28,583 bases of DNA from Oligoflexus sp. (GTDB lineage Bacteria > Bdellovibrionota_B > Oligoflexia > Oligoflexales > Oligoflexaceae): NCBI GenBank assembly GCA_041736305.1, contig JBGSTX010000020.1:1-28583 (forward strand), given 5' to 3'. The notes beneath the pieces were generated by a model. It was not told the DNA's origin and ran no database searches. It saw only the letters and a list, made by a program, of their open reading frames with translations. Positions within the stretch are counted from its first letter, which is position 1; each line of letters starts with the position of its first letter. This document shows, in pieces, positions 1-4,539 of this stretch. The translations under genes and the position numbers were made by a program.

Positions 1-141
1 GAGTCGCCCGAAGGGACTGATAGAGCGAAGGGTAAGTCTTCGCCAACGAAAGAGCCCTAGCAATAGGTAAGAGGGGACGTTTATCATATTCAATAAGAAG
101 CCTTCGAATTTTCTGACGATGATCGCTGTAAAATCCCCACG
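1..141 (-). CDS. tnpB: TnpB exon 2 (C-terminal part, runs off the window)
   Basis: Joining 2014 to 141 gives CAT G|CG TGG GGA TTT = H-A-W-G-F. The frame stays open (YSDHRQKIRRLLIEYDKRPLLPIARALSLAKTYPSLYQSLRAT) to base 1. Confidence 0.75.
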
Positions 142-2013
142 GGTGAGTAGACAGAGGGAGTTTCACCCCTAGCCCCTCGCAAAACGGTGCGGGAACCTCT
201 CGATTCACACCGCTTCCATCAGTAAACATGAAATTGACTCCAATGAGCAAATAACTTCGGATTTTTACTGAACACAGATTTTAGCCAGTCTCGCGAGGCA
301 TTGTAATTCCGCTGCAGGGATTTGTATTTATTTCTAGCCCATTTCATAAGTTGCTTATCTATGAAAAGCGCAAGAAATTGCAATCTTTTTAGGTTGAACA
401 ACCCGTAGTAGTTCAACCATCCTCTGACTACCGGATTCACTTCAGACGCCAAGTCTTCTAACGACTTATCCACTCGAAATCCAAGACGCCATTGACGTTT
501 GATGATATTCCTCATTGATTTAAGGGTATCATTGCTGATCGCAGGCTGAAATTTCATAAAGAGGGTTTTATTTTTCGGGCTATACGTAAGTCTTTCCTTG
601 AACTCGTATCCCAGAAATTTGAAGGATATTGGCGCTTTGTTAAGCCTCTTACGACTGTCGCTGCAATAAATAATTCTTGTTTTTAGCGGATGAATTTCGA
701 GCCCACATTCGGCAAACCTTGTTGTCAGCTTGTGAAGGAGCATCTTAGCCTGGTTTTCAGATTTACAGTGAATTAAGCCATCATCTGCAAAGCGACACCA
801 CAAGACACCTGGGTGGTTGATCCTCATCCATTTATCAAATGCATAATGAAGAAAGAGGTTGCTCAATAGAGGTGATATACATCCCCCTTGTGGGGTTCCC
901 TTTTTCCGCTCTATGGTGCTTCCCCTGCAGTCCAGCATAGGCGCTCTCAACCATCTTTCGATGTAGAGAATAACCCATTTGCTATCAGTATGGAGTTTGA
1001 GTGCTTTCAACAAGAGATCGTGAGGAATTTCATCAAATAGACCTTTTATATCGAACTCTAGTACCCAAGAGTATTTCCAACATCTCTGTCGCGTCACAGC
1101 AATCGCCTGATGCGCAGATTTGTTAGGGCGATACCCATAGGAGTCTGGTAAAAATATTTTATCCAGATCTGACTCTAATAAATTCTTTACAGCCGTTTGT
1201 GCTACTCGATCAGAAACTGTCGGTACTCCTAAAATTCTTTCACCGCCGGACTTCTTGGGTATTGCCACAGCCTTAACGGGCGATGGAAAGTAACTTCCAG
1301 AGGACATGCGATTCCAAATTTTATAGAGATTTGACTTTAGTTTTGATTCGAATACCTCGAGGCTCTCCCGGTCTACTCCTGATCCGCCTTTATTGCTTCT
1401 AACCTGCTTCCATGCCTCCCATATTAGTCTTTTTGGAATCTCAAACTGTTTGGTTGACATCATGGTTCGTCCTTATTTCTAAGTTGACCATAACATTTCC
1501 CGTACTGACTCTGTCCCTTTGCTCCAGCTGAATTACCAGCCTTCATTGCTCGTACGGACAGATCCGCCCCATCTGCTACCTTCCCTACTATCAGCCTTGA
1601 TGTTTTTGCATCTTGTGCCTTTCGGTTAACATGCAGCAGGATGGTTCCCGTAGTTCCACAGAAGAGCCAAGATAAAATTCGCGCCACCTTTACACCGGAC
1701 ACCACTTGGCCAGTAAACAGATTCCCGCCAAATTTATCCCAGGGTAGGCATGCGACCCTGGTTTTGATGTCGTCGTCGGATATCGATGCGTTCATCAGTG
1801 GTTCACCTTCGTTCGCCTCTTTTATCTGTACCTGCCGTCTAATTTGACGACTTTTGCCTTGTTGCTCACGACCAGGAATTTTGTTCCAAGCCGCACAAGT
1901 TGGTTTGAAACCAGCTTCTGCAAGCCGATTTCGAAGGACCTACCTTCATCTCTCCTGTAGCTTTTGCAAATTCAAGTCACATAGTGACTCCTTCTTTTGC
2001 GCCTACGGCGCAC
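142..2013 (-). mobile_element. Group II intron, bacterial class D (RmInt1-like), 1872 nt
   Basis: 5' end GTGCGCCG at 2013. Domain V GAAGCGGTGTGAATC-GAGA-GGTTCCCGCACCGTTTT at ~181-216 has an AGC triad and GAGA loop. Domain VI ends ...CTACTCACC at 142. EBS1 CATGCCT (1752-1746) sits in a CAGGGT/ACCCTG stem-loop and pairs with the exon end AGGCATG (2020-2014). The 3' boundary could be 143, but only 142 restores a long frame. Confidence 0.93.
219..1463 (-). CDS. ltrA: Group II intron reverse transcriptase/maturase, no endonuclease domain
   Basis: Motifs NLYKIWNRMSSGSYFP, IPKKSGGERILGVPTVSDRVAQ, EFDIKGLFD, GTPQGGCISPLLSNLFLH, RFADD, and X domain NPVVRGWLNYY. 414 aa with no HNH tail. AAGGA RBS at 1470-1474. 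Confidence 0.97.
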   Translation of the reverse strand: MMSTKQFEIPKRLIWEAWKQVRSNKGGSGVDRESLEVFESKLKSNLYKIWNRMSSGSYFPSPVKAVAIPKKSGGERILGVPTVSDRVAQTAVKNLLESDLDKIFLPDSYGYRPNKSAHQAIAVTRQRCWKYSWVLEFDIKGLFDEIPHDLLLKALKLHTDSKWVILYIERWLRAPMLDCRGSTIERKKGTPQGGCISPLLSNLFLHYAFDKWMRINHPGVLWCRFADDGLIHCKSENQAKMLLHKLTTRFAECGLEIHPLKTRIIYCSDSRKRLNKAPISFKFLGYEFKERLTYSPKNKTLFMKFQPAISNDTLKSMRNIIKRQWRLGFRVDKSLEDLASEVNPVVRGWLNYYGLFNLKRLQFLALFIDKQLMKWARNKYKSLQRNYNASRDWLKSVFSKNPKLFAHWSQFHVY

Positions 2014-3586
2014 CATGCCTCGTTCCGCCTTCAAATTGAAGCCGTTCCGTCATCATAGCTTGCGACGGGAGGGTGCCTTGGAAGACTTTTAGCCCTTCGG
2101 AATATCCTTGGGCACGGCGAGCGATCGCCAAAGCGGCTTTCTCATGACTAGAAATATTGAGGCCCTGGTATTTGTAGGCTCCAACGAGACTCGTATAGGC
2201 TGGATTTATGGAAATCAGGCCGATACCCCGTGAGCGAGCCCGAGAACTCACGGCCTTATGAAAATGTGCGTAAGCGAATGCCGATAGAAAGCGACGCCTC
2301 TCTCTGGGCAACTCCCTCAGAGCTTTCTTCTTTTCTTCAAAATCTAAGTGTTCGATCACAATCGGTTTGCCGAGCTTATCGGCTTCGGCAGCTATCAGAG
2401 CTGAGATATCGCCGAGCATGGCTTCGGTCTGATGCGTACTAAGACCATCCAAATCGAAGGGCACAATAAAGCTGTCGACATAGTTCCCGCTGCGATCTGT
2501 CTCTGTTACTGCTATATGATCCGCATTAAGGTCGACTCCCACGGCTCCACGACCGATGTGAGTGCTGACCTCTGGAGCTGGAACGGCGAAGCTGGCCTGG
2601 AGATAATACGCTTTTTCGCCAGCGTTTTTGTTGTGGCGGCAAAGTAATCGATAGGCGACGGGCGAGACTGTTTTTTGATTCTTTTTCTTATCTTTTCCTG
2701 GTTCTGCGAGAGCTGCACAGAACTGCTCCCAAAGGTGACGCGGGAAACTTACGTGAGCTAGCTCCAGATGGGAGCCATAGGGGAGAAAGATCTTGGCATT
2801 AGGTAGGCGAAGCCTGAGGGTCTCTGCCTCGGGGTCATATTGAACGGTCTGATTGCCGGCAGTTTCGTCAGAAGAGCCGATGAAAAAGACCTGTGAGGAG
2901 CGGCGCAGGCGAAAGTCTTCAAGCCACTCGTGGTGCGATGTGAAGCTTGATTGTTCAAGATTGAACTGCTTCTTAAACTGGGCTTTTCCCCCGAAGCACA
3001 AGCTAGGGGCAGCCTTTTGCTTTAAGACAGCGAGTTTATGCTGAAGAATCCCGAGACGCCGCTTTTTCTGATGGATTACAAATTTATTTTGACTGATTTC
3101 AGCCTTGATCTGCTCCCGATGCTGACCTTTGATAGCGGCTGGCATAGGAGGCTTTTTTCGGGGCTTTTTAAGATCATTCGCCGCAGCTTTCCACGCCCTT
3201 ATGCGATCTTTGTAGGTCTCAATAGCTTTTAACTTCGCAGAACTCGCCTTAAGATCTTTTTGCAGCTTGCTTACTTTTTGTTCCGCGACTTTTATGCTGG
3301 TAGCTAGCTTAGCGATTCTCTCCTTTTTGATTTCCTCAAGGGAGGCTCGCTTTGCAGAAATTTCATTGGCCAAAGAATTGAACTGCCGTGCAGTAAGGCC
3401 ATATTCGGCTATATATTCTTTTTTAAGCTCATTGATCGTGCCTTTTTTTACCACTAGATCACGCCAAAGCCGATGTCTTATCTCTGCCATAAATGCGAGG
3501 AGTATCTCGATGACTCCATAAGCCTGAGGATGACTGAGCCTCGTCTCAATAGTTCGCGACTCTGTCTCAAGCTCGTCAGGCTTCAT
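2014..3586 (-). CDS. tnpB: TnpB-family RNA-guided nuclease-like protein, exon 1 (the ORF-track end at 2003 reads into the intron)
   Basis: RuvC-I VGVDLNADH, RuvC-II IVIEHLDF, INPAYTS, and HEKAALAIARR at the RuvC-III position. Directly downstream of IS607 tnpA. Confidence 0.9.
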
Positions 3587-4185
3587 GCGACTGCCTTTTT
3601 GCGATTCTGCTGCGATCGACGGCCATAGAGCCTCGACGAGAACACTGTCATCAGCTCAATTACATCGGCGGCCAGCTCTTCCTCGAAGTTTTTACTGGGT
3701 GCAGCTTCAATAATGATGACTTTTATTCCAAAATGCTCACATAAATCAAAGATAATTTCGGATCCAAAGCGCAAAAGACGGTCTTTATGATTAATAACAA
3801 GATGGGTAATTTGTTGCTGAAATATAAGCCGGAAAAGTTTTCTAAGGCCCGGCTTTTTATAATTTAAACCACTGCCCAAATCTTCAATGACTTCGAAATT
3901 TGCAAAATGCTGCTGGCAATAGAGGCTCAGCTTCCTTACTTGCGTTGCCAAATCAACTTTTTGATTGGAACTCGAAACTCGACAATAGGCGAGAGCACGG
4001 CATGCGCTCTTTTCCAAGGAAGGTTTTTTGTCGAAGAAACGTTCTTCAAGGTAGTGCAGGTCATAGCGCCGATGACCACCCATTGTTCTGAACGAAGGCT
4101 TCAAATAACCGTCCTTATCCCATCGGCGAAGAGTCCCAATAGATATTCCGAGTAGAGCGGCTACTTGACTGACTGAGAGTTGCAT
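3583..4185 (-). CDS. tnpA: IS607-family transposase (MerR-type HTH + serine recombinase)
   Basis: N-terminal VAALLGISIGTLRRWDKDG...GGHRRY, catalytic YCRVSS, DLGSGLNY, HKDRLLRFG, FSSRLYGRRS. Confidence 0.96.
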   Translation of the reverse strand: MQLSVSQVAALLGISIGTLRRWDKDGYLKPSFRTMGGHRRYDLHYLEERFFDKKPSLEKSACRALAYCRVSSSNQKVDLATQVRKLSLYCQQHFANFEVIEDLGSGLNYKKPGLRKLFRLIFQQQITHLVINHKDRLLRFGSEIIFDLCEHFGIKVIIIEAAPSKNFEEELAADVIELMTVFSSRLYGRRSQQNRKKAVA

Positions 4186-4539
4186 GGCCCTTGAATCCTT
4201 AAAGATTAGCAGGCGCCATACAAATGTATTAAATGATAAGATTTGTCAAGAAAATTTGAAAACTGCTTCAGCCCTCGGTTTCGAGCGCATAGATAATTGT
4301 TTGCGCAATCACATCCTCATCCTCGACGACTAAGACTCTAGGCATGTCTATAGCGCCTTATATGGTGGAGTGCCTAAGTTATGAGAGAAGAAAGTGTGAG
4401 TCAAGTCTCTGACTCACTGTCGTCTGCGCGATGATACTTTCTTAATGTCGTATTTATGAAATCTGCATTTGACTTCTTACGCGCAAATATTCAACTTGTA
4501 GGCAACTCAAGCGCTCAGCTCTAAAAATTTGGAGTCCAC

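Follow-up and report, generated by a model that had tools for sequence, protein, structure and literature searches.

Does a group II intron that lies inside the nuclease gene of an insertion sequence (IS) form a working unit with its host, or is it one mobile element that has landed in another? The question is raised by a locus at the start of a contig of an Oligoflexus sp. metagenome-assembled genome (MAG; 392 contigs, 92.7% complete), where an intron interrupts tnpB of an IS607-family element. By the window we mean the whole stretch of 28583 nt that was analysed (G000:C157:1-28583); all features of the IS/intron locus lie on its minus strand. Our results point, with considerable confidence, to a class D, RmInt1-like group II intron without an endonuclease domain that was inserted by reverse splicing into one IS607-family copy, so that one selfish element is nested in another.

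A group II intron interrupts tnpB

The intron is 1872 nt long, begins with GTGCG and occupies positions 142..2013. Its D1–D4 region matched Rfam model RF01999 at 1947..1830 (minus strand, 103.3 bits) and its domains V and VI matched RF00029 at 142..217 (50.2 bits), in each case over the full model. The minus strand reads ...AGGCATG|GTGCG at 2014|2013, with GTGCG at 2013..2009, and the domain VI match closes at 142. On either side lie exon 1 of tnpB (2014..3586; 524 codons plus 1 nt) and exon 2 (1..141; 47 codons, open at the window edge). The apparent stop codon of tnpB is inside the intron, the 527-amino-acid open reading frame (ORF) 3586..2003 terminating as ...GGTRHGAP*, three codons into it. 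In silico removal of 142–2013 gave a 571-amino-acid frame, open to window base 1 and colinear through ...RH(V/A)WGFYSDHRQKIR... (WGFY) with 23 intron-free homologues, of which 21 have 579–587 amino acids and two are partial (438 and 489 amino acids). The joined frame was also colinear with ten intron-free DNA loci. Together with the Rfam domains and the match of the adjacent recombinase to NF033518 (see below), these results bear out what the initial annotation had claimed, namely that an IS607 tnpB harbours the intron near its 3′ end (where it lies in frame and in the sense orientation), that excision of 142–2013 removes an intronic stop and opens the frame to the window edge, and that the full-length TnpB ORF of this copy would require splicing.

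The same boundaries were found in independently built Logan contigs. In runs X1 and X2 (one study) and X4 (another study), contigs pass directly from 141 into 2014, leaving out 1872 nt, and the position of the joint is unambiguous. The contig of X4, 563 nt long, has flanks of 141 nt and 346 nt, and no depth was recorded in this run for 295–1911. Because no run is recorded as RNA, we read the joined contigs as intron-free DNA copies rather than spliced RNA. The intron-free forms are ~95% identical in exon 1 and are present both in the same run as the intron form and in the second study. The intron-bearing form was recovered as well, in a 1932-nt X1 contig that covers 112–2041 across both junctions with one mismatch and in small contigs of X2 and X3 that cross each intron junction.

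EBS1 of the intron matches the end of exon 1

The candidate exon-binding site 1 (EBS1; CATGCCT) lies in a domain I hairpin loop at 1746..1752 (intron nt 262–268) and is the complement of the last seven nucleotides of exon 1, with seven of seven Watson–Crick pairs. These seven nucleotides, the intron-binding site 1 (IBS1; AGGCATG, 2014..2020), encode the invariant Arg/Lys-His of an R-H-V-W motif of TnpB, and the target is GAGGCATGT in nine of ten close relatives, the tenth (L010) having GAAGCATGT. We compared domain I with that of ten related introns, nine of them found in the same bacterial order and one on a Sinorhizobium plasmid. In nine of these ten, the EBS1 loop matched the intron's own 5′ exon by eye, with some wobbles or one mismatch. 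This covariation of the loop with the 5′ exons indicates that the EBS1 assignment is sound and that the insertion looks like a reverse-splicing event.

Two side observations concern the intron sequence. L025 and L031, the two introns whose 5′ ends (GTGCGCCGCAGGCGC) are most similar, share a 5′ exon, …GATGGAA.ATTGA.A, that differs from that of the window; apart from one mismatch their EBS1 loop pairs with this exon, which exemplifies retargeting within the lineage. A 111-codon ORF at window 1460-1795 (−), inside intron domains I–IV and ending at the start codon of the intron-encoded protein (IEP), is probably not coding, as it lies in ribozyme sequence that can be aligned with related introns.

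The intron-encoded protein is class D-like

The IEP (219..1463, 414 amino acids) comprises reverse transcriptase (RT) and maturase (X) domains and matched TIGR04416 at E 2.6e-120. Its Pfam matches were RVT_1 (2.9e-40) and GIIM (6e-14) only, indicating that it has no DNA-binding/endonuclease domain and no HNH. The C-terminal signature of class D IEPs is LX3AX3PXLF[V/A]HW (PMC4615759); the window IEP ends in L-KSV-F-SKN-P-K-L-F-A-H-W, which agrees at seven of the eight fixed positions, with F in place of A. The best plasmid matches are 54–56% identical and include a multicopy IEP found at nine places on a Sinorhizobium meliloti GR4 replicon. The signature, the missing endonuclease domain and the identity to multicopy Sinorhizobium IEPs, rather than a reference tree, support assignment of the intron to class D (IIB3), in agreement with its earlier description as an endonuclease-less class D intron.

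Homing of class D introns into IS elements is the RmInt1 paradigm (PMC4615759). With RmInt1 as the model case, introns inside insertion sequences are already established, and the basic finding here adds one more host IS family. The window intron resembles RmInt1, RmInt2 and Sr.md.I1 of Sinorhizobium (with ISRm2011-2, ISRm17 and IS66-type targets) in its endonuclease-less IEP of ~414–419 amino acids, the class D C-terminal motif, the 5′ GUGYG of IIB introns, a natural target that lies within an IS and EBS/IBS recognition; its IEP is 54–55% identical to multicopy Sinorhizobium IEPs, which need not be those of RmInt1 itself. The hosts differ, the target here being tnpB and an overlapping structured RNA in an IS607-family element, whereas introns of the RmInt1 group target DDE transposase genes or IS terminal repeats. 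Furthermore, one copy was seen here, with no sign of the high-copy colonization described for RmInt1.

The interrupted TnpB has features of the RIIIr-4 clade

The tnpB product has at least 1182 homologues, mostly of 490–590 amino acids. Its profile matches were weak and partial, over RuvC-II to RuvC-III (NF040570, E 2e-11; TIGR01766, 39.3 bits with a cut-off of 32); there was no Pfam match for the TnpB family, and PF07282 was precomputed for only two of the 120 listed homologues. In an alignment of 36 sequences the invariant residues include D353 (in GVDLN), E413, H482 (in ...SSHEKAALAIARR...) and H525 (in R-H-V-W). H525 is the last of them and the final full codon before the intron, and beyond H-V-W the C-terminal tail differs among members of the wider family.

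In each of the 36 aligned sequences only ~14 residues, without Cys pairs, separate PAYTS from the His motif, that is, there is no C4 zinc finger. Mapped by eye onto the canonical D(R)DxNAAxNI of the L120 TnpB, the H482 motif would correspond to a replacement of the RuvC-III Asp by His. The mapping stays by eye because the profile alignment stopped short of RuvC-III: with a canonical TnpB encoded in the same genome, hhalign matched the family profile no further than WED and RuvC-I (probability 3.4%), placing GVDLN opposite GIDPG. An AlphaFold2 model of the homologue P0002 (pLDDT 85.8) gave Foldseek matches to Cas12k, Cas12f, Cas12e, Cas12g and Cas12m at E 2e-8 to 1e-4, suggesting a TnpB/Cas12 fold. 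A PDB sequence search with the family profile reached only E ~0.07, with Cas12f/TnpB-like chains over the stretch from RuvC-II to PAYTS.

A His in place of the RuvC-III Asp and the absence of a C4 zinc finger between RuvC-II and RuvC-III have been described for the RIIIr-4 major clade, which is in part associated with serine recombinases and was judged probably active (Altae-Tran et al. 2023, PMC10691335). Compared by description only, the window family is alike in having no zinc finger and, if the by-eye mapping holds, would also share the His at RuvC-III; on these two features the window TnpB appears to fit the RIIIr-4 clade. We infer that it may be an active RNA-guided nuclease. To our knowledge, no TnpB of this type, lacking the zinc finger and with His at RuvC-III, has been tested biochemically.

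Three further observations concern the family and its host. For the third catalytic position, the only invariant candidates are H482, E498 and H525 (window 2003-3586, homologues P0002–P0120). The best structural match of the family, Cas12k, is naturally nuclease-inactive. NF040570 has at least seven further matches of the canonical TnpB type in the same genome (C83:10848-11849, C150:4848-5975 and five further places), three of which exceed the cut-off, so the host carries several TnpB lineages.

The intron site lies in a conserved structured RNA

Among the ten close intron-free loci, conservation reaches ~115 nt past the tnpB stop and ends abruptly after GA(A/G)CGG, and two near-identical copies diverge exactly at this boundary. 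In eight loci the equivalent of the intron site is 259–270 nt upstream of it. RNAalifold analysis of the last ~340 nt of these eight loci predicted 61 pairs, 35 of them with compensatory changes, at −62.1 kcal/mol, compared with −14.1 kcal/mol and 7 compensatory pairs of 39 for the adjacent upstream 340 nt as a control. When pairing was counted on the predicted structure, 92.6% of cells were paired, against 34–42% with slid partners; pairs with double changes numbered 36, against 8–13 with slid partners, and none of 500 shuffles reached the observed pairing and covariation values. The initial annotation had noted that TnpB guide RNAs come from the right end of the element and often overlap the 3′ coding region of tnpB; the structured 3′ RNA of this element overlaps that region, with a covarying structure in eight relatives.

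In the window, the 5′ module of this omega-RNA-like structure would be 2014..2081 in exon 1, corresponding to helices 1–3 (columns 10–82) of the alignment, A2, and containing the hairpin 2068..2047 (CCGTCG...CGACGG). Exon 2, colinear with the C-termini of the homologues, corresponds to columns 78–218 and is part of the same conserved RNA. Helices 2 and 3 are upstream of the intron site and covary despite being coding (helix 2 is 100% paired, with compensatory changes in four of its eight pairs, in the eight relatives), and helices 4–9 are downstream. The ~330-nt structured RNA is probably the omega/guide-RNA scaffold of the element. The intron site thus appears to lie inside the predicted guide scaffold, and the scaffold of this copy would be split by the intron. 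As the structured RNA extends ~65 nt upstream of the insertion site, the integrity of the guide RNA of this copy would depend on splicing.

The covarying RNA was located at L006:1231-1570 (−), L014:1230-1570 (−), L043:650-988 (+) and five more loci (alignment A2), where it covers the terminal ~215 nt of tnpB and continues to the right end of the element; its coding positions covary, keeping a hairpin CCGNNG...CNNCGG. The closest intron-free relative has an in-frame insertion of 45 nt (15 codons) at L043:555-600 (+), ~90 nt upstream of the equivalent of the intron site and in the 5′ strand of predicted helix 1. A pairing of CACCCTC with GAGGG just past the stop, seen by eye, was dropped since it showed no covariation and RNAalifold pairs the P-L-L-P codons there instead.

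Splicing of the intron and alternative explanations

The sense orientation of the intron means that splicing of a tnpA–tnpB transcript would rejoin both the ORF (~585 amino acids) and the RNA scaffold. In the mechanism we propose, EBS1 would have recognized a highly conserved 7-nt stretch, which specifies the invariant R-H in the final conserved motif of TnpB. This target also lies within the conserved ~330-nt 3′ RNA, the probable scaffold, which overlaps the final ~215 nt of tnpB. RNA left unspliced would yield the 527-amino-acid protein and a scaffold split by 1.9 kb. That the full-length ORF and the intact scaffold of this copy would depend on splicing can soundly be concluded from the arrangement of the exons.

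Several observations weigh against the reading of a functional intron nested in both a gene and its guide RNA. Splicing of this intron is predicted from its sequence and not from RNA. Partners EBS2 and EBS3 were not convincingly identified, no 6-mer complement being found in the expected part of domain I, and the best EBS2 candidate amounts to 4–5 bp around TCCG(AC). The RT motif of the window IEP is FADD, compared with YADD in most relatives, although an intact relative, L027, also has FADD. The predicted intron-free joint was recovered at exactly 141|2014 in the contigs, but exon position +1 is T in ten of ten close intron-free relatives (CATG|T.TGG, Val) and C in the window (CATG|CGTGG, Ala); we take this to be a substitution and the junction not to be shifted. 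All 34 invariant columns of the 36-sequence alignment, among them the presumed catalytic residues D, E and H, fall within exon 1, and with the variable tail this implies that the unspliced 527-amino-acid product would keep the conserved core. As for the RNA, the model rests on eight related sequences of which two are near-identical, its structure was predicted and counted on one and the same alignment, and the first ~20 alignment columns of L043 are a non-homologous insertion. Helix 1, the one that spans the insertion point, has low covariation (two of ten pairs), and no Rfam family matched the 3′ RNA in seven related loci at E up to 1. The window itself is without the 3′ RNA modules and the right end.

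Some of these points would also suit a dead-end insertion, in which the intron splices poorly or not at all and the IS copy decays without guide RNA and full-length TnpB. Besides FADD and the lack of a clear EBS2, the single intron copy in a 92.7%-complete MAG is what such an insertion might leave. The RT motif, however, concerns mobility and not splicing; domains V/VI and D1–D4 match their Rfam models end to end, the maturase domain X is present, and the 414-amino-acid IEP, tnpA and both tnpB exons are free of stops and frameshifts. We therefore consider a dead-end insertion unlikely.

The initial annotation had proposed that the recombinase, the nuclease and the intron form one composite unit. 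In its co-adapted form, the intron would be a fixed regulatory part of the IS, with splicing gating TnpB and guide RNA and with IS and intron spreading as one. Such a unit would be in keeping with the sense orientation of the intron inside both an ORF and a structured RNA, with the intact ORFs of tnpA, the tnpB exons and the IEP, and with the published interplay of intron and guide RNA in IStrons (PMC10690162). The distribution of the two elements speaks against it. The tnpB family was found in 8 of 95 genomes of the window's order, and the loci of the seven other genomes that include the intron site all align straight through it, with no interruption seen. No intron RT/IEP match was found in 80 metagenomic tnpB-family loci, 56 of which have tnpA. 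Conversely, IEPs at E ≤1e-60 occur in 12 of the 95 genomes, with at most 56% identity over their full length, and none of 15 other IEP loci showed tnpB-like sequence or exons; the nearest related introns occupy 5′ exons unrelated to the window target. A scan of the genome collection with TnpB gave one locus, in an Oligoflexus sp. MAG; it is cut at a contig end and gave no information on the 3′ end. Within its own genome the IS has at least two other copies, partial left ends at contig ends (C221 and C350) that are only 88–89% identical at the left end; neither a second intron copy nor a second copy of the window's tnpB was found there, and the right end was not recovered from that genome. With the intron seen in a single copy, ~95%-identical intron-free forms both alongside it in one run and in another study, and its closest relatives at unrelated sites, a composite unit is very improbable and the earlier proposal is not upheld. 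The pattern is best read as a single nested insertion of the RmInt1-in-IS kind, one selfish element in another and not a co-evolved unit.

An assembly chimera, in which misassembled repeats of a metagenome bin joined the intron to the IS, might be suspected from the window starting at a contig end inside the IS, from the 392 contigs of the MAG and from the several IS variants that coexist in the run, but is scarcely credible in view of the independently built 1932-nt X1 contig, the small X2 and X3 contigs across each junction, and junctions that are exact in frame and match EBS1.

Comparison with IStrons and other introns of TnpB-carrying elements

IStrons combine a group I intron with a TnpB-bearing IS605/IS607 element (Tourasse et al. 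2014, PMC4227781; Zedaveinyte et al., PMC10690162). As would be the case here, a self-splicing intron, TnpB and guide RNA share one transcript, and splicing and guide formation can interfere with each other. In IStrons, however, the group I ribozyme forms the ends of the mobile unit and the whole IS is spliced out of a host gene, whereas the intron of the present locus is a group II retroelement that lies within the IS and interrupts both a gene and an RNA of that IS; the present element falls outside the IStron class. Kapitonov et al. 2016 mentioned group II introns in IS605 transposons (PMC4810608). These are likewise nested in TnpB-carrying elements of the IS200/IS605/IS607 type, but they encode RT–HNH fusions and reside in cyanobacterial IS605 elements, whereas the window IEP has no nuclease domain and its IS has a serine recombinase. 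Among the papers listed as mentioning both group II introns and TnpB, none describes the present arrangement in its title or abstract.

What is contributed here is the match of tnpB to the RIIIr-4 description and the covarying ~330-nt RNA, which may already be documented among the published per-clade RNA scaffold predictions (PMC10691335). The context is noteworthy: in a TnpB clade that has no zinc finger and whose RuvC-III position is apparently occupied by His, the intron target would be the overlap of the tnpB frame with a probable guide scaffold. The covarying RNA model and its sharp right end offer a concrete start for testing the clade as an RNA-guided enzyme, and the naturally occurring forms with and without the intron are a simple system in which to ask whether interruption of a guide RNA by a group II intron matters.

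A more far-reaching reading seems doubtful to us. In it, the R-H-V-W codons of this TnpB clade together with the RNA helix would be a dedicated homing site, and in intron-bearing copies group II splicing would gate assembly of a guide scaffold whose 5′ hairpins and 3′ modules are in different exons, giving an IStron-like conflict or coupling; TnpB with a guide from spliced RNA could then cut intron-less or empty sites and so favour copying of the intron-bearing IS. If true, it would amount to coupling or conflict between a retroelement and an RNA-guided nuclease.

The host insertion sequence

The IS607-family element with its nested intron spans 1..4274, its right part running off the contig and window start. 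Since the first base of the window is a contig end, the element is cut short by ~160 nt, a length estimated from relatives, and lacks its right end and the stop codon of tnpB; judged from the closest relative, ~14–15 codons, the stop and a ~115-nt tail lie beyond the contig end. The left boundary at ~4274 comes from comparison of copies, similarity to C221, C350 and L006 stopping after ...CTGCTTCAGCCC on the plus strand, and the right terminus, closing with ...GA(A/G)CGG, is deduced from the relatives only.

The serine recombinase gene tnpA (3583..4185, 200 amino acids) encodes an N-terminal MerR-like helix-turn-helix and a resolvase domain (Pfam MerR, 3.3e-12; Resolvase, 2.1e-18). Its product matched NF033518, "IS607 family transposase", at E 4.1e-56 with 189.5 bits (cut-off 110), and tnpA (4185..3583) is followed on the same strand by tnpB, which begins at 3586 with a 4-nt overlap.

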